From Patescibacteria group bacterium (lineage in GTDB: Bacteria > Patescibacteriota > Microgenomatia > UBA1400 > PJMF01), in assembly GCA_041747555.1 (NCBI GenBank), contig JBGTEY010000007.1, positions 11,426 through 75,425 of the forward strand: a DNA stretch of 64,000 nucleotides. The letters run 5' to 3'. A program made the position numbers and the translations under genes. Numbering within the stretch: position 1 is the stretch's first letter; each line of letters begins with the position of its first letter. Of this stretch, positions 1 to 63,950 are shown in pieces. Below the pieces are notes generated by a model, which saw only the letters and a list, made by a program, of their open reading frames with translations, had not been told where the DNA came from and searched no databases.

Positions 1-1217
1 ACGGCATCTGAAAGAGACGTGATCTGATGACTTATGAGTGTGGGAGCCGTTTGCCCACTCCCTGGACTGGCAGTTGGTCCTGGAGTTGAGCCGAGCCCAT
101 CACAGAGGTCGTTGTGAGGGTTCTCGCTATTTCGACACCGCCCCACGTCCATTCGACAGTAATTTGAATTGCACTCACTATCCGAACTGCAAAGCTCATT
201 ACATGATTTTTTCTCTGGAGTGGCAGGATTCTCATCGGGGGAGTCATATTGGAATGTTTTGGTGACTTCAGAGTCAGCGGTGCTTGAGGGCGCAGTGATT
301 CTTGCAGCGGTCGTCCAATTAACCGAACTTGTGCCTGTGTATCCACCTGTTTCTAGTGTAAATTGAACAGTTTGACCTACAGTATTAGCAGGGACATTTG
401 AAATACTCCAAGTGATTGTGCGGTTTACCGTATCAATGACGGGAGTTGTGCCACCATATGCGGTGGATGCGGAGCCATTGACGTAGCTAACAACTTCAAC
501 AGAAGGTGTACCTTGACCAGAAATAGTGCCAAGACTCCATTCGGCCTGAACAGTGAGATTGGTTGAGTAGGCTAATTCTGAACCATAGGTAATTTCATAG
601 ACAACATCCTGATCTTGACTAAAGGTTGTCCCCGAGGTTAGAGCTGTAAGCTGTGCACTCAAGTCGTTCGTGTCAGCTGCTACAGTCGCAGTTACACCAA
701 TTTGATCAAACGAGACGACTGATACTTTTGGGGCAGCTGTATCTACAGTGCTTCCAAGTGATCTGGTGGCAAGGTACCATTGGTATCCCGTGCCACTTCC
801 TGCAGCAGGATTAGTGGTGATTCCGCCCGTAATATAAAAACCATAGAGTGTTCCTGGGGCAATATTTCCACCCGGAAAACTAACTGTAGATCCACTGACG
901 CCAGTGGCAGTAACTATGCCTGGATAGGCAGTTACTCCAGGCGGGAGAGATGCAGTTGAAACTGTGTAATTACTAGCAGTAGGGCTGATGTTCCAGGCTG
1001 AGCCGACTGTAACGTCGATACCATCCTCAACGGCAGTGCTAGTTGGGGTTACAAGTATTAAAATTGGTGTAGGAGTTTCACCTGATGCTTGTCTTTGAAG
1101 TCGTATAGCAGCACTAGTAAGGTCAGCTGCCATGATTGAACTTGCCAGACTAAAACTAGTGAGTAACAGTGCAAAAAAAACAACACAACCAAGCCAGATT
1201 TTTTCTGGGAATTTCAT
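1..1217 (-). CDS. Partial secreted surface protein; the N-terminal ~405 aa are in the window and the C-terminus lies beyond position 1. Thr/Ser/Gly-rich, with a repetitive beta-rich ectodomain.
   Basis: Manual translation of the minus strand from ATG at 1217-1215 gives MKFPEKIWLGCVVFFALLLTSFSLASSIMAADL, a signal peptide. The frame stays open to position 1. The ORF track omits it because there is no in-window stop. Composition is T/S/G/V-rich. Confidence 0.6.
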   Translation of the reverse strand, partial: MKFPEKIWLGCVVFFALLLTSFSLASSIMAADLTSAAIRLQRQASGETPTPILILVTPTSTAVEDGIDVTVGSAWNISPTASNYTVSTASLPPGVTAYPGIVTATGVSGSTVSFPGGNIAPGTLYGFYITGGITTNPAAGSGTGYQWYLATRSLGSTVDTAAPKVSVVSFDQIGVTATVAADTNDLSAQLTALTSGTTFSQDQDVVYEITYGSELAYSTNLTVQAEWSLGTISGQGTPSVEVVSYVNGSASTAYGGTTPVIDTVNRTITWSISNVPANTVGQTVQFTLETGGYTGTSSVNWTTAARITAPSSTADSEVTKTFQYDSPDENPATPEKKSCNELCSSDSECNSNYCRMDVGRCRNSENPHNDLCDGLGSTPGPTASPGSGQTAPTLISHQITSLSDA

Positions 1218-5363: not shown

Positions 5364-6008
5364 ATGCGCACAAAAAGTATCGGAGAGGTACTGAGGGAGG
5401 AACGGACATCGCATCGTTTTCCATTGGATAAACTTTCTAAACAAACGAGAATACGACTTGAATACCTCAAAGCACTCGAGAATAATCAGTTTGATTTACT
5501 ACCTGCCGCTACGTTTGTGAAGGGGTATATTAAGACCTATGCCAAAGTGTTTGGTTTTGATCACCAACCTGTTTTGGCATTGCTCAGACGTGATTATCGC
5601 GAAAGCGCCAAAGGCAAGCTTGTTCCTAGGGAGTTTATAAAACCCGTCCTTAAGCCACGAATGCGAAATCACCGGGTGACTGGGGTCGTAGTTGGCGCTG
5701 TATTCGTCTTTTTTACCTTGCTGGGGTATGTTGGTGTGCAGTGGTATCACTTGCAACAGCCTCCTTCGCTCTCAATATCTCTCCCAGAAGATCATGCAAC
5801 CGTTGCGGCGACAGTCCCCATTGTTGGCAGAACCACCCCAGAAGCGACCGTACACGTTAATCAAGAACCTGTTGCTATCCAGCCTGACGGTAGCTTTCAA
5901 ACTCAGATCAATATTCCGAAAGAAGGTATAGCATTTATTGAAGTCACTGCTGTTGATCGACGTGGGAAAGAAAATAGCATTATTCGCACGGTAACTGTCG
6001 AATTTTAA
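5364..6008 (+). CDS. RodZ-like protein with an N-terminal HTH (HTH_25), a TM helix and a C-terminal beta domain
   Basis: N-terminus SIGEVLREERTSHRFPLDKLSKQTRIRLEYLKALENNQFDLLPAATFVKGYIKTYAKVFGFD matches the RodZ HTH. A TM helix follows at VVVGAVFVFFTLLGYVGV. Confidence 0.6.
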   Translation: MRTKSIGEVLREERTSHRFPLDKLSKQTRIRLEYLKALENNQFDLLPAATFVKGYIKTYAKVFGFDHQPVLALLRRDYRESAKGKLVPREFIKPVLKPRMRNHRVTGVVVGAVFVFFTLLGYVGVQWYHLQQPPSLSISLPEDHATVAATVPIVGRTTPEATVHVNQEPVAIQPDGSFQTQINIPKEGIAFIEVTAVDRRGKENSIIRTVTVEF

Positions 6009-7360: not shown

Positions 7361-7389
7361 TTGACACGCTGTATCACAAGGACTACAAT
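7361..7389 (+). promoter_or_regulatory. Consensus sigma70 promoter for alaS (TTGACA-N17-TACAAT), leaving an mRNA with almost no leader
   Basis: TTGACA 7361-7366, a 17-nt spacer, TACAAT 7384-7389. The ATG is at 7401 with no SD. Confidence 0.5.
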
Positions 7390-7400
7390 TCCCTCAAGAA

Positions 7401-9263
7401 ATGACCATAAATGATATTCGAAAATCCTATTTAGACTTTTTTGAGGCCCAAAGTCACGCAGTAGTGCCTTCTTCAAATATTGTTCCAGAAAATGACCCCA
7501 CGACATTATTTACCGGTTCTGGCATGCAACCAATGGTGCCGTACCTACTCGGTGAAACCCATCCAAAGGGTACGAGGATTGTCGATTCACAAAAATGTTT
7601 TCGGACGCAAGATATTGAAGAAGTCGGAGATAATCGACACACTACCTTTTTTGAAATGCTGGGAAATTGGTCATTAGGGGATTATTTTAAGAAAGATCAA
7701 CTTACTTGGCTTTTTACATTTCTGACAAGTGAACTTGGTCTTCCCGCAGAGCGATTGTATGCGACGGTGTTTAGTGGGAACAAATCCCTTGGAATTGATC
7801 AGGATGATGAATCGGTTGACATCTGGAAAAAGCTTTTCTCTGATGCAGGGGTGCGCGCAGAAGCCAAGAAACATGCAGAAGAAAAAGGCATGCAGGGAGG
7901 TCGAATTTTTTACTACGATGAAACCAAAAACTGGTGGTCCCGTGCGGGTGTGCCAGACAACATGCCGCCCGGTGAGCCAGGAGGTCCTGATAGTGAAGTT
8001 TTTTACGATTTTGGTGAGGATCGTGGATTTCACGAGCTTTCTGAATGGAAAGATCAGCCGTGTCACGTGAATTGTGATTGTGGACGGTTTATTGAAATTG
8101 GAAATTCTGTGTTTATGGAATTCCAAAAGCAAGAAGATGGGTCGTTTGAACCGCTAGCGCATAAGAATGTTGATTTTGGTGGTGGACTTGAGCGAATCGG
8201 TGCTGCTGTGCTTGATAATCCAGACGTGTTCAGGACCACAGGCTTCATGCCAATCATTCGATTTTTAGAAGAAAAAACAAAGAGAAGTTATGATGAAATA
8301 GAAGTCCAGCATAGTTTTCGGGTGATTGCAGATCATGTTCGTGCTGCAGTTATGATGGCATCCGACGGCGTACGTCCATCAAACAAAGAGCAAGGCTATT
8401 TTTTGAGACGGGTAATTCGTCGCGGTATTCGGTATGCAAAATTGGTCAATATAGATGAATCCATACTTTCTGACCTGGTTCCAATTGTGGCTAAGATCTA
8501 TGCGGACGTCTATCCAGAGGTTGCAGTAAACGCACAAGAGCTTGCAACCGTATTGAGCCAAGAAGAAGCAAAATTTTCCAAGGCTCTCGATAGAGGTTTA
8601 GCAGAAATTGAAAAACTCCCCAAAATTGACGGCGTCATGGCGTTTAAGCTCTATGAAACGTATGGATTTCCTTTTGAATTAACCCAAGAAATCGCAGCAG
8701 AGAGAGGTCAACCTCTAGAAAGAAGAGAATTTGATGACGCCAGAGCTGCTCATGCCAAGAAGTCGCGGACAGCATCTGCGGGTAGATTTAAAGGTGGTCT
8801 CCAAGACAGCAGTGAAATCACAACGCAGTATCACACCGCGACGCATCTCTTGCATGCCGCACTCAGAAAAGTACTAGGGGACCACGTGCAACAAAAGGGC
8901 TCTCATATCACTGCTGAACGGGCTCGATTTGATTTTTCACATGGCCAAGCACTTTCAGAAGATGAATTAAATGCCGTTGAAAGCCAAATTAATAAGTGGA
9001 TTGCAGCCGCGTTACCAATGACTGCACAAACTCTTCTCAAACAAACCGCACTCAAAGCAGGTGCACTTGCTTTTTTTGTTGAAAAGTACCCTGACGAAGT
9101 AACCGTGTACACAATTGGCAAGGATCCAGACACGGATTGGATCTCAAAAGAGCTTTGTGGCGGTCCGCATGTCGAGAACACAGGTGAAATACCACCTATT
9201 GAAGTATTCAAAGAACAAGCTAGCAGTAGCGGTGTTCGTCGTGTGTATCTCAGGGCTCGCTAA
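7401..9263 (+). CDS. alaS: Alanine--tRNA ligase, a short 620-aa form. It has the catalytic, tRNA-recognition and editing domains but no C-terminal C-Ala domain.
   Basis: N-terminus FFEAQSHAVVPSSNIVPENDPTTLFTGSGMQPMVPY ... FEMLGNWSLGDYFK is the class II AlaRS core. Editing-domain motifs HTATHLLHAALRKVLGDHVQQKGSHI and CGGPHVENTG are present. The protein ends about 30 aa after the editing Cys. Confidence 0.9.
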   Translation: MTINDIRKSYLDFFEAQSHAVVPSSNIVPENDPTTLFTGSGMQPMVPYLLGETHPKGTRIVDSQKCFRTQDIEEVGDNRHTTFFEMLGNWSLGDYFKKDQLTWLFTFLTSELGLPAERLYATVFSGNKSLGIDQDDESVDIWKKLFSDAGVRAEAKKHAEEKGMQGGRIFYYDETKNWWSRAGVPDNMPPGEPGGPDSEVFYDFGEDRGFHELSEWKDQPCHVNCDCGRFIEIGNSVFMEFQKQEDGSFEPLAHKNVDFGGGLERIGAAVLDNPDVFRTTGFMPIIRFLEEKTKRSYDEIEVQHSFRVIADHVRAAVMMASDGVRPSNKEQGYFLRRVIRRGIRYAKLVNIDESILSDLVPIVAKIYADVYPEVAVNAQELATVLSQEEAKFSKALDRGLAEIEKLPKIDGVMAFKLYETYGFPFELTQEIAAERGQPLERREFDDARAAHAKKSRTASAGRFKGGLQDSSEITTQYHTATHLLHAALRKVLGDHVQQKGSHITAERARFDFSHGQALSEDELNAVESQINKWIAAALPMTAQTLLKQTALKAGALAFFVEKYPDEVTVYTIGKDPDTDWISKELCGGPHVENTGEIPPIEVFKEQASSSGVRRVYLRAR

Positions 9264-9299: not shown

Positions 9300-11711
9300 A
9301 TGGTAAGGATGGCCAAAACTACTTCTGAACCTGTTGCTCAAAATAGAGGGCATGTACTGTGCGTGATTCTTTCTGAAAACCAAGTGCAGTCGTTTCTCGT
9401 TGCGTACGGCTCAGATGGAGTTGAAATTCTAGAACAATCTCAAGCGGTGCCGTATGGCGACACCAAGTCTGTTGTCAAAAGAGTTGATGACAGCCTCCAA
9501 GATCTGGGCAAGGAATCAGAGAACATAGATCAAGTTATTTTTGGTGTTGAGCATACCTGGATTACACGAGGAGATTTAGCACCAGAGAAACAAAAAATTA
9601 TCACCACCATTGCAGACGCACTTTCATTGAAGCCACAGGGCTTTGTAGACTCACTCGAATCATTAATTCAGAAGCAACTTCATATCAGTCCTAGAAGTTC
9701 AGAAATTATGGTGGAAATTAGTCAGGCATCGATTTCTATAGGAGTTGTTATCCATGGAGACCTTCGTGGAATAGAGGTCATTGGTAGATCAGCATCTATT
9801 GTTGACGACATTGGTGAAGGATTTGCGCGTTTTGCGGTAAATTTAGAGCCTGATGGTGTGTATTTGCCTACTAAAATAGTCCTGTCATCACTCGATGTTC
9901 CTGAAGATACGCTTCGCAAATTTCAGCAGGAGTTGTTGGCAATCGACTGGCCATCTCAGTCGAGGTTTTTGCAATCCCCAGCGATTGATGTGTTGTCGCG
10001 AAACTTAAGTGTAACGATTATTGCTGAAGAAGCAGGTAAAGGAGTTGCGCTCGCGAATGATATTCCAGTTGCTGCTGATTTGAGCAGTTCAGGAGAAGTC
10101 AACGAGGTGGTGAATGCAGATGAGGACGAGCCTTCCGAAGACTTTGATTTTAAACCTGTTGCCACCAGTGTGACACCTGTTGCAGCAGCGACTACAGGTG
10201 CAGCTGTCGCAACAGCCAGTTCAGTCACAGCGGGTGAAGCTGTAGTGAGCCCTGATTTACTCGACACTAAATCGGGAGAACCTAAAACTGCACGCCCTAA
10301 AGCTGAATTCTCTGAAGCAAAAACTTTTGGAGTGCCTATTACCTCGAAGCAATTAGCCGAAATAGAACTACAAGCAGTGCGCAAGGGTGAGCTACCTGAC
10401 GATAGTGAAGCGACAGCAGTTGAAACCACGTCAGTCTGGTCAAAGGTATTATCTGGAGTAACCACGCTTTTTAGTCGATCTCAGGCAACTGCTCGACCTG
10501 CGTCAGGGTCACATGCTCATAATCCAAAACGATTTATAGTAATTGGGGTATTGGCTGGCTTGATAGCACTTTTGGGATTGAGTGTCTTGGGGACAGTATT
10601 TTTCTCATCAGCTGTGGTCACAATTATCCCAAATAAACAGTTAGTTAGTAAAACACTATCGCTCACCTTGGATGAATCTGCAACTTCACCAGATGCAGCT
10701 TCACTAACACTTCCTGCAAAACAAGAAACGGCATCACTTTCTGATGAAAGCACCGCACCGACAACAGGCACGACATTGGTAGGAGAATCTGCAAAAGGTA
10801 CGATAGAAATAATAAACAAGACTACATCTAACAAAATATTTGCTGCTGGTACTGAGGTTACAACTGGCGAGCTTACCTTTACGTTCGATGAAGAAGTTGA
10901 AGTACCAGCAGCAGTTGTTGAAGAGGATCCAGAAGAAAAAGAAGAGGTCAAAAAATTTGGTGAAGCAACGGTTGCAGTCACTGCCTCAATAATTGGATCT
11001 GACAGCAATATCGAGGGCGGCACGGAGTTGACCGTAGCATCATTTGATAGCTCGACTTACACTGCGCGCGCAACTGAGGCATTTACTGGAGGAGAAGAGC
11101 GAGAAGTAAAAGTTGTTTCTGAGAAAGATCGCACCGACATCCAAACCGCTATGCTCCAATCATTATTGGAGGAAGTCAATAAAGAATTTAGAGAAAAAGA
11201 ACAAAATGGCACTCGATATTTACCTATCGAGCGTGTTGAGGTAGTAAGTGCTGAATTTAATAGAGAAGTTGGTGATGAAGCCAATGAAATAACACTCAAA
11301 CTTGAGGTGACCGCCGAAACACTTTCATACGATATCTCTGATCTAAAGCTTATTACCCAAGAAGTCTTACAATCTGAAGTTCCAGAAGGATATGCTCTGG
11401 TGAATAAAGAGCCAGATATTCTATCTCAACCCATCGATCCCTCTGAAAATGAAGACGATGAGGAAGGAGTAGACTCGTTTTTAATCAAGGGAGACGTTAG
11501 TTCAGCAGCAGTACCTACATTTGAAAATCAAAATCTTGCGCAAGATATCGCGGGCAAATCTATAGAAGAAGCAACCAGGCAACTCAGAGAACTAGATTCG
11601 GTGAAATCTCTCAGCATCACACTCAGACCCTCTCTGTTACAAAATTTCTATTCGCGGTTACCCAAAGACCAGCAGCGAATTGAAATCAAAGTGTTGGTAG
11701 AGGAGGAGTAG
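9300..11711 (+). CDS. Hypothetical 803-aa bitopic membrane protein. It has a ~400-aa N-terminal cytoplasmic domain, possibly a degenerate actin-like FtsA/PilM fold, then one TM helix and an acidic Thr/Ser/Glu-rich ectodomain.
   Basis: Long ORF with a TM helix at FIVIGVLAGLIALLGLSVLGTVFF, about aa 405-428. N-terminal patterns HVLCVILSENQVQSFLVAYGSDGVEIL and DDIGEGFARFAV loosely resemble actin-fold phosphate loops. The alternative start at 9309 has a better SD. Confidence 0.45.
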   Translation: MVRMAKTTSEPVAQNRGHVLCVILSENQVQSFLVAYGSDGVEILEQSQAVPYGDTKSVVKRVDDSLQDLGKESENIDQVIFGVEHTWITRGDLAPEKQKIITTIADALSLKPQGFVDSLESLIQKQLHISPRSSEIMVEISQASISIGVVIHGDLRGIEVIGRSASIVDDIGEGFARFAVNLEPDGVYLPTKIVLSSLDVPEDTLRKFQQELLAIDWPSQSRFLQSPAIDVLSRNLSVTIIAEEAGKGVALANDIPVAADLSSSGEVNEVVNADEDEPSEDFDFKPVATSVTPVAAATTGAAVATASSVTAGEAVVSPDLLDTKSGEPKTARPKAEFSEAKTFGVPITSKQLAEIELQAVRKGELPDDSEATAVETTSVWSKVLSGVTTLFSRSQATARPASGSHAHNPKRFIVIGVLAGLIALLGLSVLGTVFFSSAVVTIIPNKQLVSKTLSLTLDESATSPDAASLTLPAKQETASLSDESTAPTTGTTLVGESAKGTIEIINKTTSNKIFAAGTEVTTGELTFTFDEEVEVPAAVVEEDPEEKEEVKKFGEATVAVTASIIGSDSNIEGGTELTVASFDSSTYTARATEAFTGGEEREVKVVSEKDRTDIQTAMLQSLLEEVNKEFREKEQNGTRYLPIERVEVVSAEFNREVGDEANEITLKLEVTAETLSYDISDLKLITQEVLQSEVPEGYALVNKEPDILSQPIDPSENEDDEEGVDSFLIKGDVSSAAVPTFENQNLAQDIAGKSIEEATRQLRELDSVKSLSITLRPSLLQNFYSRLPKDQQRIEIKVLVEEE

Positions 11712-11712
11712 C

Positions 11713-12669
11713 GTGAGTACAAACCCTGTCGACATGCATGAACAGTTGGTGTCACTCTATCGGAGAGCGCTTCTTAGTGGAATTGACATGTCAGAGGTTG
11801 ATGACAAGATCTCAGAGTTTTCAGTTCGGCAAGATGCGAGTGAAAAAGTAGAAGAATTCCATGATGCAGAGCGAATCGGTCGAACGAAACGCGCTCTACC
11901 GACGCTGATGCGGGTAGGATCATTCTCGATTCCAGCACTTTTTATTGGAGTTGGCCTGTATTTGGTTGGGACTGCGGTTGTTCCAATCTTGGGATCATAT
12001 ATTTCGGCAACGTCTCAGTTGCAAGCTGCACAACTGATGGCGCCTATTCCTCAAGAAGAAGTTCTTGATGTTACGCCATTAGTGATCACTCAAGAACAAC
12101 CGAGTGAAAAAAGTCAGGTAGATTTGCAATCTGAGCCACAAATTATTGACGAGGCACTTGACTACACCAACTTAAATAATTGGTTTGCAGACGCAACCTT
12201 GCCAGAGTTGGCAAATGCAAAAGAAGTTGAAGGCGAAGAATATATTGTCGATATACCTAAGCTTAATGTAAGCAACGCTCGAGTGAAGGTTGGTGGTACC
12301 GACTTGGATGAGAGTTTAATCGCGTATCCAGGCACTGCGCTCCCAGGCGATGTTGGAGCACCTGTAATTTTTGGACACTCAGTGTTACGGGCCTACTACA
12401 ACCCTAGTGAAAAGAATTCACGCCGCTACAATTCCATATTTAGTACCATTATGACGCTCAAGGCCGGTGATGAAATCTTTGTCACCCAAGATGGGGTAAA
12501 ATATAAATATCTGGTTCAAGAAAAAACAGAAGTAAAACCAGAGGATGTGTATATCCTGAAACAAAACTACTCGGTGAAGCAGCTCAAATTAGTAACGTGC
12601 ACTCCTGAGGGAACATACCTTCGACGCGGCGTGGTTACTGCAACTTTGGTCCCGTTTGCTGAAGAATAA
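11713..12669 (+). CDS. Sortase-family transpeptidase, membrane-anchored
   Basis: GTG start 1 nt after the upstream stop and preceded by AGGAGGAG. N-terminal TM helix. Catalytic His in VIFGHSVLRAYY. The TLxTC motif appears as KLVTCTPEGTYLRRGVVTA, with the active-site Cys and the conserved Arg. Confidence 0.75.
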   Translation: MSTNPVDMHEQLVSLYRRALLSGIDMSEVDDKISEFSVRQDASEKVEEFHDAERIGRTKRALPTLMRVGSFSIPALFIGVGLYLVGTAVVPILGSYISATSQLQAAQLMAPIPQEEVLDVTPLVITQEQPSEKSQVDLQSEPQIIDEALDYTNLNNWFADATLPELANAKEVEGEEYIVDIPKLNVSNARVKVGGTDLDESLIAYPGTALPGDVGAPVIFGHSVLRAYYNPSEKNSRRYNSIFSTIMTLKAGDEIFVTQDGVKYKYLVQEKTEVKPEDVYILKQNYSVKQLKLVTCTPEGTYLRRGVVTATLVPFAEE

Positions 12670-12672
12670 ATC

Positions 12673-13074
12673 ATGACAATCCCACCCAAAACTCTCGGAA
12701 TTGATTTTGGAACCAAGCGAATAGGTTTGGCTGTTACGTATGCGTCACTGGTAGAACCACTTGAGGTGATCAGCTATCAGGAAATTGGGCAAGCTCTAAA
12801 CCGAATAGTGGAAATCTGTGAAGAACATCATGTTGAGCAAATCGTGATCGGAATTTCTGAGGGTGAAATGGCTGACAAGACAGAGGTCTTTATTGGATCT
12901 CTGAGAGAAAAATTAACGCTACCAATTTTCACCACTGACGAGACACTCTCTTCCCAAGAAGTTCTGAGCAAGCTCGCTAGTCAAGGAAAGCAACATAGTG
13001 GTCCCAAGTCAGGACCTATCGACCATTATGCCGCAGCAATAATTCTTGACGAATGGTTGTCTACTCGACCATAA
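12673..13074 (+). CDS. ruvX: Holliday-junction resolvase-like nuclease RuvX/YqgF
   Basis: LGIDFGTKRIGLAVT at the N-terminus is the YqgF signature. 133 aa. Confidence 0.8.
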   Translation: MTIPPKTLGIDFGTKRIGLAVTYASLVEPLEVISYQEIGQALNRIVEICEEHHVEQIVIGISEGEMADKTEVFIGSLREKLTLPIFTTDETLSSQEVLSKLASQGKQHSGPKSGPIDHYAAAIILDEWLSTRP

Positions 13075-13090
13075 TGTTTCATGTAAAATA

Positions 13091-13486
13091 TTATTCGTCT
13101 GAGGTTTTTCGGTGTGACTCTAGTTTTTTTAGAAATTTGTCGTGGATTGCAACATATTCTTGATGAAGGTCTTCTAGCTCGCTATCTGCAAGATCTTCTA
13201 TTTCCAGCAAATGTAGTCTTGCGCCTTTCACCGCGCGAATGAGCTCGTCTAGTTTGAGGTGCACTGCCTTGGTATCTCTGTTTTGCGTATTTTGAATCAG
13301 AAATACCATTAAAAACGTAACAATTGTTGTCATGGTGTTGATAAACAACTGCCAGGTGCTCGAATAATTAAATACGGGTCCGAGAGAGAACCAGATTACA
13401 ACTATGGCAACAGCAGTGAGTGACGCCCAAACTGAGCCGGTAATTCGAGAGACTGTAGATGCTATTTTTCTGAAAGTATCATTCAT
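13091..13486 (-). CDS. Low-affinity iron permease family small membrane protein (PF04120-like)
   Basis: WFSLGPVFNYSSTWQLFINTMTTIVTFLMVFLIQNTQNRDTKAVHLKLDELIRAV matches the conserved core of that family. Confidence 0.6.
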   Translation of the reverse strand: MNDTFRKIASTVSRITGSVWASLTAVAIVVIWFSLGPVFNYSSTWQLFINTMTTIVTFLMVFLIQNTQNRDTKAVHLKLDELIRAVKGARLHLLEIEDLADSELEDLHQEYVAIHDKFLKKLESHRKTSDE

Positions 13487-13580: not shown

Positions 13581-14606
13581 ATGAACGATATTTACTCTGA
13601 TGAATCAATTCCACCTCAACTTACAAGGCCAACACCATGGGCAAGGCTTTTGATTGCACTCGTGATGTTTCTACTGGTAGTGGGTGCAGGCGTCGCTTTT
13701 TTAAGTTTTGAACTTTTGCAACCTACCAATTCTAGTCAAGAGTCAGTCAATTTTATAATTCCAAAAGGTCAGTCGGTTGCAGTTATAGCTCAACGGCTTG
13801 AAGACCAAGGGCTTATTTCTCATCCTTTGGTATTTAGAATAGTTGCACGCTACAAAGGTATTGAACAACAGATACAGGCTGGGACGTTTGAATTGTCTTC
13901 GAGTCAGTCTGTGTTCGAAATAGCAGATACCCTTACCCAAGGTACGGAAGATCTATGGATCACACTGCTTGAGGGATGGAGAGATGAGGAAGTAGCTGAG
14001 TATTTAGCGTCGCAGGATTTGCCACTATTTGATGAATCTGAATTTTTGAACCTCGCCAAAACTACGCCAGGCAGGCTTTTTCCGGATACGTACCTGATTC
14101 CACATGAGATGACCTCCACACAAATTCATTCGTTGCTCGTGAATACCTTTGAGACCAAAGTTATTGAAGGCCTCGAGGCAGAAATTGCAGATAATCCTCG
14201 AGATTTTCAAGATGTGCTCGTTATGGCTTCTTTAGTCGAGCGCGAGGCACGAGAGTATGAGCAGATGAGACACGTAGCTGGCATCCTCTGGCACAGAACA
14301 AACATTGGAATGGCGTTGCAAGTGGATGCAACGTTGCAGTATACACGCGGGTTTGATCCAGCAGCTGATTCCTGGTGGAGTCCACCAAGAGCTACAGACA
14401 AGACAATCTCGTCACCATACAATACATATGCGTCACCAGGTTTGCCACCTACTCCAATTTCAAATCCAGGCCTCAATGCCATCAAAGCGACCCTTGACCC
14501 AATCGACAGTAATGATTTATTCTATCTTCATGCTCGGTCGGGAGAAATGTACTACGCCGAGACGCTACAAGAGCATAACGCAAATATAGATAGATACTTG
14601 CGTTAA
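13581..14606 (+). CDS. mltG: Endolytic murein transglycosylase MltG (YceG family)
   Basis: N-terminal TM helix. MASLVEREAR and the C-terminal YNTYASPGLPPTPISNPGLNAIKATLDPIDSNDLFYL are YceG hallmarks. Confidence 0.8.
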   Translation: MNDIYSDESIPPQLTRPTPWARLLIALVMFLLVVGAGVAFLSFELLQPTNSSQESVNFIIPKGQSVAVIAQRLEDQGLISHPLVFRIVARYKGIEQQIQAGTFELSSSQSVFEIADTLTQGTEDLWITLLEGWRDEEVAEYLASQDLPLFDESEFLNLAKTTPGRLFPDTYLIPHEMTSTQIHSLLVNTFETKVIEGLEAEIADNPRDFQDVLVMASLVEREAREYEQMRHVAGILWHRTNIGMALQVDATLQYTRGFDPAADSWWSPPRATDKTISSPYNTYASPGLPPTPISNPGLNAIKATLDPIDSNDLFYLHARSGEMYYAETLQEHNANIDRYLR

Positions 14607-14840: not shown

Positions 14841-17800
14841 ATGAATCATTCGCCAAGACAAAACTGGGGTAAAACATACAAGCTTCTTCCCGAGCTTGAT
14901 CTCGTCAAGCTACAAATAGATAGCTACTCTCAATTCTTAGACCATGGTATCCGAGAATCCTTACAGGAAGTTAACGGAGAAAATGGCATAGAAGATTACA
15001 CCGGGAAAAACTGGTCACTCCGATTTGGTGAATATCGCTTCGCACTTCCAAAATACACAATTTCACAAGCCAAGAAGAAAGGTGTTACTTACGACATTCC
15101 TTTATATGTCGAGGCAACGCTCGTAAACAAAAAAACTGGTGAAGAGCAAACTCAAGAAGTCTTTTTGGGCGATATGCCTAAGATGACACCGACTGGCACG
15201 TTTGTCGTTAACGGAATTGAGCGCGCAGTTGTGACACAATTAGTGCGTTCACCTGGAGTATTTTTCTCTAGTGATGTTGATTCCAGCACTGGTCGAGAAC
15301 TTTTTCAGGCAGAACTTCGTCCCAAACGTGGCTCATGGCTTGAAATAACTGTTGGTAAGCGAGACATTATCACCGTTAAAATTGACCGTCGACGAAAAAT
15401 GCCGGTGTCCGTTCTGCTCAGAGCCATTGGTTTAAGCAGTGACGAAGAGTTGTTGGAGGCGTTCAAAGACGAGCTTTCAATGGACGAATTTAATTTACTT
15501 CAAAACACCTTAGAAAAAGACGCTACTAAATCTCGAGAAGAAGCTCTTATCGAAATCTACGAAAAAATGAGACCTGGTGAGCCAGCAGTGCTCGACACAG
15601 CCCGCGAGTTCTTAAAGCAATTGTTCTTCGATCCTAGACGGTACGATCTAGGTGGAGTTGGTCGATACAAATTGAATCGCAGACTTTCAGTCACCGTCGA
15701 TCCAGAAACGACCACCCTTTCACCCGATGACATTATTGCTTCAGTCAAATACTTGATTCGATTGCAAAATGGTCAAGGTAAAGTCGATGACATTGACCAC
15801 TTAAGCAATCGACGAGTTCGTCAAATTGGTGAGTTGGTAAAAGACTCAGCACTGAGAATTGGACTTATTAGATTAGAGCGATCAATCCGTGAAAAAATGT
15901 CTTTAACCAAGACAGACGAGTCACTCAGTCCAGCGGCCCTCGTCAACGCTCGACCACTTATCGCCACTATTTCAGAATTCTTCAGAAGAAATAGACTTTC
16001 TACAATCTTGGATCAAACCAACCCACTTTCAGAAATTGATAACTTACGTCGGTTGTCTGTTATGGGTTCTGGTGGTGTTACCAGAGAGCGCGCTTCATTT
16101 TCTATGCGTGATATTAATGCGTCACAGTATTCTCGTATTGACCCGGTTCGTTCTCCAGAAGGTCCAAATATTGGACTCGTTACCTATCTCGCACTCTATA
16201 CCAAGGTCAATGACTTCGGTTTCTTGGAGTCTCCATACCATCCCGTCAAACGGATTGGTGAAAAAATGAAAATCGAAGATGAAATTGTCTACATGGCTGC
16301 AGACGAAGAAGAAGACTACAAAATTACTCACGCTGGTGTAGAAATCAGTGACGCTCGATACATTACCCAAGAGTGGGTCCCGATGCGTCATATGAACAAC
16401 TTTATTGAAGGTCCAATGACAGACGTTCAATATGTTGACGTTGTGCCTCGACAAGTGATTGGTACTTCAGCATCACTCATTCCATTTATTGCTCATGATG
16501 AGGCCAACCGTGCGCTCATGGGAACCCACATGCAATGTCAAGCTGTGCCGCTCATCATGCCTCAAGCACCAACTGTTGGTACGGGTATGGAGCGAGCAGT
16601 TGCAATTTCTATGGGAAGAACAGTTGTTGCTCGACATTCAGGAAAAGTTACCTACGTTGACGCAAATAGAATTGAACTCACTTTGAGCAAAAAAGACGCA
16701 GACGCCGCCAAAAAAGAAATCAGAGACGAAGGTGACGAGAGCACTAAGCTCGATGGAACTGTAGAAACCTACTTCGTCACAAAATTCTTCAGAACCTCAC
16801 AGAGCACCTGTTACTCACAAAAACCAATTGTCAATTTAGGCGATGAAATAACTGCAGGAGACGTTATTATTGATGGTCCATCCGCAGATAATGGTGAGTT
16901 AGCACTTGGTGCAAACCTTGTGATCGCATACGCATCATTCGATGGACTTGGTTATGAAGACGCTATTGTTATTTCTGACCGATTGGTTCAAGAGGATGTC
17001 TTAACCTCAATTCAAATTAACGAATACAAATCACGAGTCATGGACACCAAACTCGGTGTTGAAGAACTCACCAATGACATTCCAAATGTCAGTGAAACCT
17101 ACCTCAGTAACTTAACTGCAGAAGGTATCATTAGAGTTGGAAGTGTTGTTAGCGCAGGCGACATCCTTGTTGGAAAGATTGCTCCTAAAGGTGAAACTGA
17201 ATTGACTCCAGAAGAGCGATTGCTCCGTGCTATCTTTGGTGAAAAATCCCGAGAAGTACGCGATACCTCACTGAGACTCCCTCATGGAGAATCTGGAACA
17301 GTCATTGACGTCCAGGTTCTTGATAGTGATCTTGGTGATGAGCTCGATCCAGGCACACTCAAAGAAGTGATCGTCAAAGTTGCACAAACCAGAAAAATCA
17401 CCGTTGGTGACAAGCTTGCTGGTCGCCATGGTAACAAAGGTGTTATTTCAAAAATCGTGCCAACAGCAGATATGCCTCATTTAGATGACGGTACTGCAGT
17501 CGACATTATTATTTCACCACTTTCTGTGCTTGCTCGTATGAACCTTGGGCAATTGCTCGAGTCTCATGCGGGATGGGCAGCGTCTAAACTTGGGTACAAA
17601 ATTGCCGTTCCAGCCTTTGAACAGTTCGATGAAAAACGAATTTGGGATGAATTGGAGCGCGCAGGTTTGCCAGTCACCGGAAAAGCAACCCTTATCGACG
17701 GCCGAACAGGTGAAAAATTCAGCGAACCAACAACAGTCGGTATCGGATACATCTTGAAACTTTCACACATGGTGGAAGACAAGATGCATGCTCGATCAAC

Positions 17801-18341
17801 TGGTCCATACTCACTCGTTACCCAACAGCCACTCGGTGGTAAAGCACAAATGGGTGGACAGCGACTGGGAGAAATGGAAGTCTGGGCACTCGAAGCACAT
17901 CGTGCAGCGCATACGCTTCAGGAAATGTTGACTATAAAATCTGATGACGTCACCGGACGTGCCAAAGCGTTTGAAGCAATCGTTAAAGGTCTCGAGATTC
18001 CTGCACCAACCGTGCCTGAGTCGTTCAGGGTCTTGATGCGCGAGCTCAATTCACTTGGTGTGAACGTTGTCCCTCATGAAGCCCAAGAAGAAGAGGAAAT
18101 CATCCCGGTAGTTGTTTCAGATGATGATCAGGGTGACGATCCAGTCAGCGATGATCAGTCAGATGATGATGACACCGACGATGACGATTCAGAAGATGAG
18201 CTCATCGATGAGGATACTGATGAAGAAAAGAGCGAACCAGACGAAGACGAAATCAAACGCCTGGAAGACGGAGACATCGATGACGAAACTGAAGACGATG
18301 TTGAAGTTGAGAGTGAACAAGATGAGGAAGTAAGGGAGTAA
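14841..18341 (+). CDS. rpoB: DNA-directed RNA polymerase subunit beta, with a ~110-aa strongly acidic C-terminal extension
   Basis: 1166 aa. Canonical beta motifs are present, for example NMQRQAVPL-like MGTHMQCQAVPL, GDKLAGRHGNKGVISKI and GGQRLGEMEVWALEAH. The tail DDDQGDDPVSDDQSDDDDTDDDDSEDELIDEDTDEE... is lineage-specific. Confidence 0.97.
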   Translation: MNHSPRQNWGKTYKLLPELDLVKLQIDSYSQFLDHGIRESLQEVNGENGIEDYTGKNWSLRFGEYRFALPKYTISQAKKKGVTYDIPLYVEATLVNKKTGEEQTQEVFLGDMPKMTPTGTFVVNGIERAVVTQLVRSPGVFFSSDVDSSTGRELFQAELRPKRGSWLEITVGKRDIITVKIDRRRKMPVSVLLRAIGLSSDEELLEAFKDELSMDEFNLLQNTLEKDATKSREEALIEIYEKMRPGEPAVLDTAREFLKQLFFDPRRYDLGGVGRYKLNRRLSVTVDPETTTLSPDDIIASVKYLIRLQNGQGKVDDIDHLSNRRVRQIGELVKDSALRIGLIRLERSIREKMSLTKTDESLSPAALVNARPLIATISEFFRRNRLSTILDQTNPLSEIDNLRRLSVMGSGGVTRERASFSMRDINASQYSRIDPVRSPEGPNIGLVTYLALYTKVNDFGFLESPYHPVKRIGEKMKIEDEIVYMAADEEEDYKITHAGVEISDARYITQEWVPMRHMNNFIEGPMTDVQYVDVVPRQVIGTSASLIPFIAHDEANRALMGTHMQCQAVPLIMPQAPTVGTGMERAVAISMGRTVVARHSGKVTYVDANRIELTLSKKDADAAKKEIRDEGDESTKLDGTVETYFVTKFFRTSQSTCYSQKPIVNLGDEITAGDVIIDGPSADNGELALGANLVIAYASFDGLGYEDAIVISDRLVQEDVLTSIQINEYKSRVMDTKLGVEELTNDIPNVSETYLSNLTAEGIIRVGSVVSAGDILVGKIAPKGETELTPEERLLRAIFGEKSREVRDTSLRLPHGESGTVIDVQVLDSDLGDELDPGTLKEVIVKVAQTRKITVGDKLAGRHGNKGVISKIVPTADMPHLDDGTAVDIIISPLSVLARMNLGQLLESHAGWAASKLGYKIAVPAFEQFDEKRIWDELERAGLPVTGKATLIDGRTGEKFSEPTTVGIGYILKLSHMVEDKMHARSTGPYSLVTQQPLGGKAQMGGQRLGEMEVWALEAHRAAHTLQEMLTIKSDDVTGRAKAFEAIVKGLEIPAPTVPESFRVLMRELNSLGVNVVPHEAQEEEEIIPVVVSDDDQGDDPVSDDQSDDDDTDDDDSEDELIDEDTDEEKSEPDEDEIKRLEDGDIDDETEDDVEVESEQDEEVRE

Positions 18342-63611: not shown

Positions 63612-63950
63612 TTAGCTCAATTTTCGTTTGATGACGAGTGCGCCAACGCCTGACAACATGCTTACAGCAGCGGTTGCAGTGGTTTGGGCATCGAGGGCTG
63701 TGTCAGCGGGAGTGTGTGTTTTCCCAAGGACTTGGCCTTCACGAAACTTAATTGATTGCTCTTGTTCACCGAATTGTTCTGCTTTGGCTTTACATTTTGA
63801 TGTTTGGCCATAAGCGCCAACTTCGCATTCAATCTCGATTTCTTGTTCGAGTGTTTGCTTTTGTGTGGCATCGGTTTCAGCTTGGGCCTGTGCAGGAGCA
63901 CTGACCATAAGTGCTGAAATGAGCAGAGCGGCAACGATAAGTTTGTTCAT
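63612..63950 (-). CDS. Small secreted protein, 112 aa. N-terminal signal peptide, a Cys pair, and a C-terminal hydrophobic segment plus KRK tail.
   Basis: AAGGAG upstream. MNKLIVAALLISALMVSAPAQAQA ... the C-terminal AAVSMLSGVGALVIKRKLS resembles the TM-plus-basic tail of cell-wall sorting signals, but no LPXTG is present. Confidence 0.5.
   Translation of the reverse strand: MNKLIVAALLISALMVSAPAQAQAETDATQKQTLEQEIEIECEVGAYGQTSKCKAKAEQFGEQEQSIKFREGQVLGKTHTPADTALDAQTTATAAVSMLSGVGALVIKRKLS

Follow-up and report, generated by a model that had tools for sequence, protein, structure and literature searches.

A predicted membrane-spanning protein with actin-like and phage baseplate-like domains, encoded beside a sortase between alaS and ruvX in Microgenomatia

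The stretch of DNA analysed here, called the window throughout, comprises 64,000 nucleotides (nt) from a Patescibacteria group bacterium of the class Microgenomatia (contig JBGTEY010000007.1, positions 11,426 to 75,425), and our subject is a pair of neighbouring genes that it carries between alaS and ruvX. The first, which we call X803, is an open reading frame (ORF) of 803 codons (9300-11711, + strand), and the second encodes a membrane sortase of 318 amino acids (aa) that starts at GTG (11713-12669, +). Upstream, the block is bordered by a short form of alaS (7401-9263, +; 620 aa; tRNA-synt_2c 1.2e-120, NF002436 1e-196); downstream of the pair lie ruvX/yqgF (12673-13074, +; RuvX match 1.9e-25) and then mltG/yceG (13581-14606, +; YceG match 2.3e-68), which forms the downstream border and is followed by rpoB and rpoC. 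The initial annotation, made from the sequence alone, had described two extra genes between alaS and ruvX-mltG, and this description held: the ORF coordinates were exact and the families were confirmed by Pfam and NCBIfam. A low-affinity iron permease gene on the opposite strand (13091-13486, -) lies between ruvX and mltG; it is found only in the closest relatives (loci L001-L003 and L066) and is absent from the other Microgenomatia loci.

The genes of the block are closely packed, with 36 nt between alaS and X803, 1 nt between X803 and the sortase, and 3 nt between the sortase and ruvX. At the second of these junctions a strong Shine-Dalgarno sequence, GAGGAGGAG (11700-11708, +), lies within the last codons of X803 and is followed by the stop codon TAG (11709-11711), a single C (11712) and the GTG of the sortase (11713), just as had been noted from the sequence at the outset. 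The best sigma-70-like promoter match of the region (7361-7389, +; TTGACA-17-TACAAT, 11/12 matches) stands just 5' of alaS and is a possible promoter for alaS-X-sortase-ruvX; the regional total of promoter-like sites did not exceed that of shuffled sequences, and the site is suggestive only. Taken together, the short gaps and this single good promoter-like site suggest, with a promoter scan that is not statistically informative, that alaS, X803, the sortase and ruvX form one transcription unit. X803 has two in-frame ATG codons at its 5' end, at 9300 and 9309, and since Met4 corresponds to the Met that is conserved across the family alignment, translation may in fact begin at the ATG at 9309, giving a protein of 800 rather than 803 aa.

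X803 is predicted to be a bitopic membrane protein made of four consecutive parts. In an AlphaFold2 model built with a 60-sequence alignment (mean predicted local distance difference test score, pLDDT, 84.7), residues 17-255 (9348-10064, +) form a minimal actin-like domain of the ASKHA type, modelled at pLDDT >95 as two tandem beta-beta-beta-alpha-beta-alpha-beta-alpha (RNase H-like) units; this N-domain is acidic, with a net charge of -15. It is followed by a cytoplasmic linker rich in A, S, T and V (residues 256-408; 10065-10523, +), which appears disordered, with pLDDT <50 except at about 341-362 and 380-391. The first of these exceptions contains the linear motif TFGVPI (residues 342-347; 10323-10340, +) and a short helix (349-362), a candidate docking peptide in which F343 and G344 are conserved in at least 90% of 60 family members. 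The only hydrophobic span of the protein (about 409-445) has K/R on its N-terminal side, and hydropathy, these charges and the modelled helix place a single transmembrane (TM) helix at residues 409-434 (10524-10601, +), with its N-terminus inside. The remainder, residues 437-803 (10608-11708, +), is the extracytoplasmic part; it carries the family signature GGEEREVKVVSEKD and has a net charge of -41, with 15% E, 10% T and 9% S.

How widespread the family appears depends strongly on the search used. A word-index search, run with X803 and then with the 60-member alignment, returned only four proteins, whereas a profile search run exhaustively through 1.84 billion cluster representatives returned 9,006 homologues at E<=1e-3 and 1,949 at E<=1e-30, and yielded more than 100 full-length proteins of 700-820 aa. 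With this many representative homologues, and with a gene order that is kept across dozens of species, the ORFs of X803 and the sortase are real genes. A sequence search of the PDB with the family profile gave no matches.

Part of this family has a different form and a different gene context. In two loci from Saccharimonadia (L004 and L079), X is a shorter protein of about 550-570 aa, with the same TM helix and ectodomain and another N-terminus of about 90 aa; its gene overlaps ruvX directly, there is no sortase, and an FtsA-like gene lies 1-6 nt upstream. The same order, ftsA-like-Xshort-ruvX(-mltG), was found in 81/81 Saccharimonadia loci (80 from a metagenome scan with a short-form alignment, plus L079), with alaS upstream wherever the contig reaches it. 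A gene for a LysM-CHAP hydrolase lies downstream in Saccharimonadia. The FtsA-like neighbour is about 85% identical across Saccharibacteria; it matches TIGR01174 at 3e-35, which is below the cut-off of that model, and PilM_2 at 6.6e-11, while its PDB matches are to FtsA (4e-15) and PilM (5e-10). Proteins of this kind in the loci, about 421 aa long, retain both DxG and DxGGG. The short-form N-domain (KDTIYIDIDDE...) is itself strongly conserved, as seen in L079 (6482-8131) and in P0004, P0131 and P0152, and was assigned a SpoIIAA/STAS-like fold by Wang et al. 2023 (PMC10633639). A profile comparison found no similarity between the long-form and short-form N-domains, so the short-form domain was not retained in the long form. 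The linker motif has a counterpart, a G-A-P-I motif in the short form P0004 being the equivalent of the long-form TFGVPI; the short-form linker motif reads PVGELAG...APIA. X is a family of bitopic envelope proteins present in at least two classes of Patescibacteria, and X803 is its Microgenomatia form.

The suspicion, raised from the sequence at the outset, that the N-domain might be a degenerate actin-like fold was borne out by AlphaFold, which gave no unrelated fold, and by two further comparisons. A Foldseek search of the PDB with the N-domain returned Ppx/GppA, BT_3980, ROK kinases, PilM, FtsA, YeaZ and EutJ at E of about 1e-8 to 1e-6, with probabilities reaching 1.0 and no subfamily clearly ahead. 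A more specific link came from HHalign, in which a profile of 59 long-form N-domains, compared with one of 63 FtsA-like neighbours from Saccharimonadia, aligned X803 residues 102-244 with FtsA-like residues 195-379 (probability 95.2%, E 2.8e-8, 140 columns); both share the signature L..DW....F(L/T)..P.I. Control comparisons with ruvX, mltG, the sortase, alaS and a reversed FtsA-like alignment gave P of 0.017 to 0.68, the ruvX control being itself an RNase H-like fold. This profile-profile link is the only significant one at the level of sequence: X803 had no match at E<=0.1 to Pfam FtsA, PilM_2, TIGR01174 or TIGR01175, BLASTP of its N-domain against the FtsA-like fragment of L004 found nothing, and a hidden Markov model (HMM) of the FtsA-like neighbour did not match X803. 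On this profile evidence, the cytoplasmic domain of X803 is homologous to the product of the separate FtsA/PilM-like gene of Saccharimonadia.

While the fold is kept, the features that make an actin-like protein an ATPase are not. The DVGGGTTD and LCGGGAS segments of the Saccharimonadia neighbour align with segments of X803 that are glycine-free and unconserved, strand 1 of the N-domain has no conserved DxG in the 60-member alignment, and the phosphate-1 DxG, phosphate-2 DxGGG and adenosine GGG motifs are all absent from the domain, which makes it a pseudo-ATPase. Both FtsA and X803 are held at the membrane, yet X803 lacks the C-terminal amphipathic membrane-targeting helix of FtsA and has a true TM helix instead, and in its AlphaFold model the 240-residue fold has no SHS2/1C insert. 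With the motifs lost and no room for SHS2/1C, the N-domain is a degenerate, minimal derivative of an FtsA/PilM-like protein.

Given the profile-profile link between this domain and the Saccharimonadia paralog, the long form most likely arose by gene fusion. The ancestor would have been a two-gene module made of an actin-like ATPase and a bitopic Baseplate J-like protein; in Microgenomatia the two genes would have been fused, the STAS-like domain replaced or lost, ATPase function lost and the sortase gene inserted downstream. The direction of this change is read from the loss of the nucleotide-binding motifs. Taken jointly, the statements on architecture and fusion have, in our estimate, a probability of about 0.9.

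Published data on the Saccharimonadia epibiont Southlakia epibionticum allow the two-gene version to be considered in a living system. Table S1 of Wang et al. 2023 (Cell) covers the block from alaS through ExoI, in the same gene order as L004, and gives HMM calls from transposon-insertion sequencing (Tn-seq) as essential (ES), non-essential (NE) or GD for passages P0, P1 and P2. There, alaS (SEML1_0657) is ES, ES, ES; the actin-like neighbour (SEML1_0656), annotated as 'PilM' with KO K03590, is NE, NE, GD; the 'baseplate J/gp47 family protein' (SEML1_0655) is NE, ES, ES, with insertions falling from 25 to 7 to 2; RuvX (SEML1_0654) is NE, ES, ES; MltG (SEML1_0653) is NE, NE, NE; the LysM-domain protein (SEML1_0652; LysM plus CHAP) and ObgE (SEML1_0651) are both GD, ES, ES; and ExoI (SEML1_0650) is NE, NE, GD. 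Both SEML1_0655 and SEML1_0656 were flagged as core and Patescibacteria-enriched, and SHS2-domain structural matches were reported for SEML1_0656 (Wang et al. 2023, Tables S1 and S2). We infer that SEML1_0655 is the short-form homologue; the published calls make it fitness-essential after passage. Like X803, the pair occupies the position between alaS and ruvX-mltG, its membrane protein belongs by annotation to the same TM plus Baseplate J-like ectodomain family, and the relatives of its actin-like partner are those found homologous to the X803 N-domain by HHalign. It differs from X803 in consisting of two genes, with a separate and intact actin-like protein, a STAS/SpoIIAA-like N-domain on the membrane protein, and no sortase.

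The homology of the N-domain to an FtsA-family protein raises the possibility that X803 is a component of the divisome or elongasome, in which the FtsA-derived domain would link it to FtsZ/FtsA or MreB, synthesis of the septal or lateral wall would be under the control of the ectodomain, and the sortase would be a passenger of the operon. Beyond that homology, the presence of MltG downstream (joined in Saccharimonadia by the LysM-CHAP hydrolase) and the Tn-seq profile of the short form as fitness-critical would agree with such a role, as would a gene about 3 kb upstream of X803 in the window (5364-6008, +), which encodes a 214-aa protein with HTH_25, one TM helix and a Glucodextranase-B/Big-like domain, an architecture that we take to be RodZ-like. 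However, the actin-like neighbour is not the divisome FtsA: the canonical FtsA-FtsZ pair of Southlakia (SEML1_0174/0175) lies elsewhere in the genome, as does its type IV pilus (T4P) PilM, SEML1_0104 (Wang et al. 2023), making the neighbour a third actin-like paralog. Moreover, this paralog is nearly dispensable according to its calls, and the long-form domain has neither 1C/SHS2 nor the ATP-binding motifs. In canonical FtsA it is the 1C/SHS2 domain that mediates contacts with later division proteins. The tight and conserved overlap between X and the sortase, described below, further argues against a mere passenger, and overall we consider a divisome or elongasome role unlikely.

The extracytoplasmic part of X803 had been characterised in the initial annotation as an acidic, Thr/Ser-rich ectodomain, and while the composition agrees, this is not the whole of it: the region is predicted to be a folded Baseplate J/gp47-like module. 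Modelled alone it reached a pLDDT of 88, and in the full-length model residues 437-800 exceed 90, forming a mostly beta, multi-domain structure. Foldseek matched it in the PDB to the wedge chains of phi812, cyanophage A-1(L), diffocin, Pa193, Mu and phiCD508, at E of 2e-6 to 1e-3 over 350-390 columns, and also to the GlxA beta-barrel domain; in BFVD nearly all named matches were 'baseplate J-like' or wedge proteins, the best at 1.7e-8. The TM-scores are low (about 0.2), so that what is alike is the domains and their order, not a fixed overall shape, the relative domain orientations being either different or not fixed in the model. Pfam Baseplate_J matches 31/60 family members at E<=0.01 (best 1e-6); X803 itself scores 18.5 bits (1.3e-3) against PF04865, where the gathering cut-off is 21.1, and its homologue P0002 scores 22.2 bits. 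Judging from the models, the ectodomain amounts to an entire wedge module of the Baseplate J/gp47/gp6 type, placed on the outer side of the membrane.

X803 shares with the wedge proteins P2 gpJ, Mu gp47, T4 gp6, the diffocin and phi812 subunits and TssF of the type VI secretion system a fold that extends over about 350-390 columns and the Pfam Baseplate_J signature around GG..RE. Such a match to myophage and tailocin wedge proteins, which takes in nearly the entire ectodomain and is supported by Pfam in about half of the members compared, could mean that X803 is a domesticated phage or tailocin remnant. It would then be either a baseplate gene left behind or a component of a surface device that resembles a contractile injection system and is directed against host cells or employed on them. 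Unlike the wedge proteins, however, X is a single gene set among housekeeping genes, and its product is TM-anchored outside the cytoplasmic membrane and fused to or paired with an actin-like domain. No tail-type genes (wedge partner, sheath, tube or spike) were seen among the called genes around X, no scan aimed at tail genes having been made. In more than 150 loci X keeps its place between housekeeping genes, a sign of vertical inheritance, and a PHROGs search gave no match at E<=0.01, which places X far from present-day phage sequences. We therefore regard a phage remnant as a very unlikely explanation.

Architecturally, the closest parallels to X803 are GspL and the PilM-PilN pair, which likewise combine an actin-like domain in the cytoplasm, one TM helix and a domain beyond the membrane in what amounts to the logic of a cross-membrane adaptor. 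The actin-like domain of GspL is part of a fusion and does not bind ATP. By analogy, X803 would work most like these systems, yet it does not belong to them by any of the comparisons made: no Pfam T2SSL, PilN or PilM match was found (E<=0.1), the outer domain is not ferredoxin-like, and the conserved block holds no secretion or pilus genes. One could nevertheless envisage a pilus or secretion alignment factor, in which X803 is a GspL-like fusion equivalent to PilM plus PilN, serving a type IV or other pilus whose subunits are anchored or polymerised by the sortase. Not only does the arrangement of an actin-like pseudo-ATPase, one TM helix and an outer domain fit this idea, but PilM structures are among the fold matches of the N-domain, and the Saccharimonadia partner matches PilM_2 and was annotated as PilM by Wang et al. 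2023. On the other hand, no pilin, PilB/T ATPase, PilC or prepilin peptidase was found in the block across about 150 loci (a survey confined to the block itself, without the flanks beyond it), separate and complete pilM-pilN-pilO sets are present in the T4P loci of Southlakia and TM7x (in TM7x both pilM1 and pilM2 sit inside such loci), and the ectodomain is Baseplate J-like instead of having the ferredoxin-like fold of PilN, GspL and GspM. A pilus or secretion factor hence seems to us quite unlikely.

The second gene of the pair is, as had been recognised from the sequence, a membrane sortase: it scores 70.7 bits against PF04203 (1.2e-19; cut-off 26.6), and it has a TM segment and a catalytic triad of H222, C296 (within LVTCTPEG) and R304 that is conserved in 70 orthologues. 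The protein consists of a cytoplasmic N-extension of about 65 aa, a TM segment at about 66-95, a conserved extracytoplasmic linker and a catalytic domain at 180-313. With sortases of classes A-F it shares the fold, the His-Cys-Arg triad, the TLxTC-like motif LVTCTPEG and an N-terminal membrane anchor. The general model TIGR01076 is reached (40.3 bits; cut-off 39.35) but none of the NCBIfam class A-F models reaches its cut-off, the scores against cut-offs being 40.1/160 for class C, 32.2/160 for class E, 29.3/165 for class D and 28.1/166 for class F; matches to PDB sortases extend down to 2.6e-7, and the best solved relatives are class D and class C enzymes. Further differences from these classes are the conserved extra segments SPIP... 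and LDYTNLSNWF between the TM segment and the catalytic domain, and the conserved cytoplasmic extension, which to our knowledge is unusual, as sortases normally have none. Within this extension lies the motif LxxLYRxAL (residues 12-20; 11746-11772, +), identified by its conservation in 70 sortases adjacent to X, at least 95% of which keep Y16, R17 and A19; we regard it as a candidate contact with the cytoplasmic domain of X803.

It had been argued at the outset that X803 is not a substrate of this sortase, and this holds: the protein has neither LPXTG nor a hydrophobic/basic C-terminal tail, and with no sorting signal we rule out a role as a classical substrate. A conserved P...R.I motif at its C-terminus recurs in short forms that lack a sortase neighbour. 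The accompanying statement that sortase-dependent pili and S-layer-like assemblies are known in the candidate phyla radiation (CPR) found no support in the literature that we searched. A sortase family was reported to occur almost throughout Microgenomates and only patchily in the rest of CPR (Meheust et al. 2019), a distribution that matches the linkage of the sortase to X only in Microgenomatia loci.

That linkage could be followed across the class. Using a 10-member alignment and one genome per species of the GTDB, we collected 75 loci whose X proteins are 26-38% identical to X803, nearly all of them from records titled Pacebacteria, Woesebacteria, Microgenomates or Patescibacteria; three further loci came from close relatives, and gene order was read by tblastn with the proteins of the window. 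The order alaS-X-sortase-ruvX-mltG-rpoB was found in every Microgenomatia locus that reaches far enough, and the sortase came next after X in 72/72 informative loci, which establishes the co-occurrence of the two genes in other genomes that the initial annotation had called for. Measured from the stop of X to the start of the sortase, with start codons picked heuristically, the spacing lies between -10 and +9 nt in 58/71 loci, with many overlaps of 4 or 8 nt, and the proposed translational coupling is thereby supported beyond the window. Pairwise divergence of X correlates with that of the sortase (r 0.89; partial correlation given alaS 0.71) and of MltG (r 0.87; partial 0.69) and follows alaS or ruvX less closely, a pattern that is suggestive only. 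The record titles of loci with this block look unreliable as taxonomy: many metagenome-assembled genome records that carry the Patescibacteria-type block (among loci L007-L078) are titled 'uncultured Pseudomonadales bacterium', and a complete genome titled 'candidate division TM6' (CP011212.1, locus L062) has the alaS-X-sortase-ruvX-mltG-rpoB block.

Conserved adjacency need not reflect a shared function, and X803 and the sortase might simply be unrelated genes that sit together in one compact operon of housekeeping genes. In the compact genomes of CPR, overlaps between unrelated genes are common, alaS, ruvX and mltG are themselves syntenic though functionally unrelated, and X occurs without a sortase in Saccharimonadia. 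Against such hitch-hiking stand the persistence of the adjacency down to 26% protein identity, mostly with 4- or 8-nt overlaps or gaps below 10 nt, the cytoplasmic extension of this particular sortase, and the occurrence of sortase insertion and actin-domain fusion in the same lineage. An association by operon structure with no functional tie therefore strikes us as very improbable.

What the pair does can be proposed in outline. It probably belongs to cell-envelope assembly, and the presence of MltG in both classes, together with the LysM-CHAP hydrolase in Saccharimonadia, is consistent with such a role. X803 would act as a transmembrane adaptor in the manner of GspL or the PilM-PilN pair: its pseudo-actin domain and linker peptide (TFGVPI) would bind a partner or self-associate, and its baseplate-like ectodomain would oligomerise on the wall-facing side. 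In Microgenomatia this scaffold would recruit the co-translated sortase, perhaps via the cytoplasmic N-peptide of the enzyme, and the recruited sortase would then anchor surface proteins where peptidoglycan is made or trimmed. We consider such an envelope-spanning scaffold that positions the sortase the most likely function, and give this mechanism a probability of roughly 0.35-0.45.

Several points weigh against this proposal. The order alaS-ruvX-mltG exists in many bacteria that have no X, and adjacency to mltG may carry no functional meaning. Shared phylogeny, along with rate effects that envelope proteins have in common, confounds the mirror-tree correlations among X, the sortase and MltG. 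When C-terminal tails were scanned twice, across the window and about 160 loci, the candidates were too few for a sorting motif to be defined. The partnership of X803 with the sortase, suggested from the beginning, stands for Microgenomatia but not as the core function of the family: Saccharimonadia loci pair X with an FtsA/PilM-like paralog and have no sortase, so the partnership is a lineage-specific addition and positioning a sortase cannot be the ancestral role. Finally, the Tn-seq evidence has its own caveats, as SEML1_0655 is identified as the short form by synteny, length and annotation, not by sequence comparison, and its essential call may reflect polarity on ruvX, an essential gene that overlaps it; MltG is non-essential there.

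A more ambitious version of the scaffold proposal would see in X an undescribed envelope-spanning machine of at least two Patescibacteria classes, built from an actin-like cytoplasmic protein and a membrane-anchored ectodomain derived from a phage baseplate. Microgenomatia would have absorbed the actin-like partner as a pseudo-ATPase and captured the housekeeping sortase of the lineage via its N-peptide, and the whole might provide a cytoskeleton-like siting of wall anchoring, or else an attachment structure for an epibiotic lifestyle. We offer this as speculation, and think it unlikely.

As for novelty, the sequence family is not new, as its short form is already listed as 'baseplate J/gp47 family protein' in the tables of Wang et al. 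2023, with conservation and Tn-seq data in a supplementary table. The main text of that study does not discuss SEML1_0655 or SEML1_0656, and no paper discussing the X module was found in the literature that we searched. Within that literature, what appears to be undescribed is the form with a fused pseudo-actin domain, the homology between it and the neighbouring paralog, the coupling of X to a sortase without exception in Microgenomatia, and the reading of these parts as one envelope module.

A large part of bacterial diversity belongs to Patescibacteria, and no role is known for the majority of the membrane proteins that are conserved and enriched in this lineage. The X module has a fixed genomic position in at least two of their classes, and in the only genome-wide Tn-seq data that we found for the group, growth cannot be sustained without the gene presumed to be its Saccharimonadia homologue. 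Its parts are not seen together elsewhere: a fold of the FtsA/PilM kind, the wedge fold of a phage baseplate on the outside of the membrane and, in Microgenomatia, a dedicated sortase. It could serve as an entry point into the surface organisation of these ultrasmall, wall-bearing cells, and as a case both of gene fusion followed by ATPase loss and of the re-use of a phage structural fold by cells. Experiments are feasible, since the genetically tractable Saccharibacteria Southlakia and TM7x carry the two-gene version.

Some minor observations concern the secreted proteins encoded in the window and in related genomes. The tail scans turned up TLPESGALE..., HTPADTALD... and ILPELSGE... as candidates. 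The second of these belongs to a 112-aa protein encoded in the window (63612-63950, -), which has a signal peptide and ends in HTPADTALD..., about 20 hydrophobic residues and KRKLS, making it a candidate sortase substrate; similar tails (TLPESGALENT...KSKN) occur in small secreted proteins of related genomes (L057, 1078-1575; L064, 1206-1691), which are candidate substrates as well. A partial gene at the start of the window (3-1217, -) encodes a secreted protein rich in Thr, Ser and Gly, with an N-terminal signal peptide, no Pfam match and a C-terminus that falls past the window start.

Two further features lie downstream of the block. The last ~270 nt of rpoB (14841-18341, +) encode a C-terminal tail of about 90 aa in which almost every residue is Asp or Glu. 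From 18000 to 46000 of the window, across the rpoC, translation-factor and apparent ribosomal-protein genes on the + strand, a positive AT skew of up to +0.34 is sustained.

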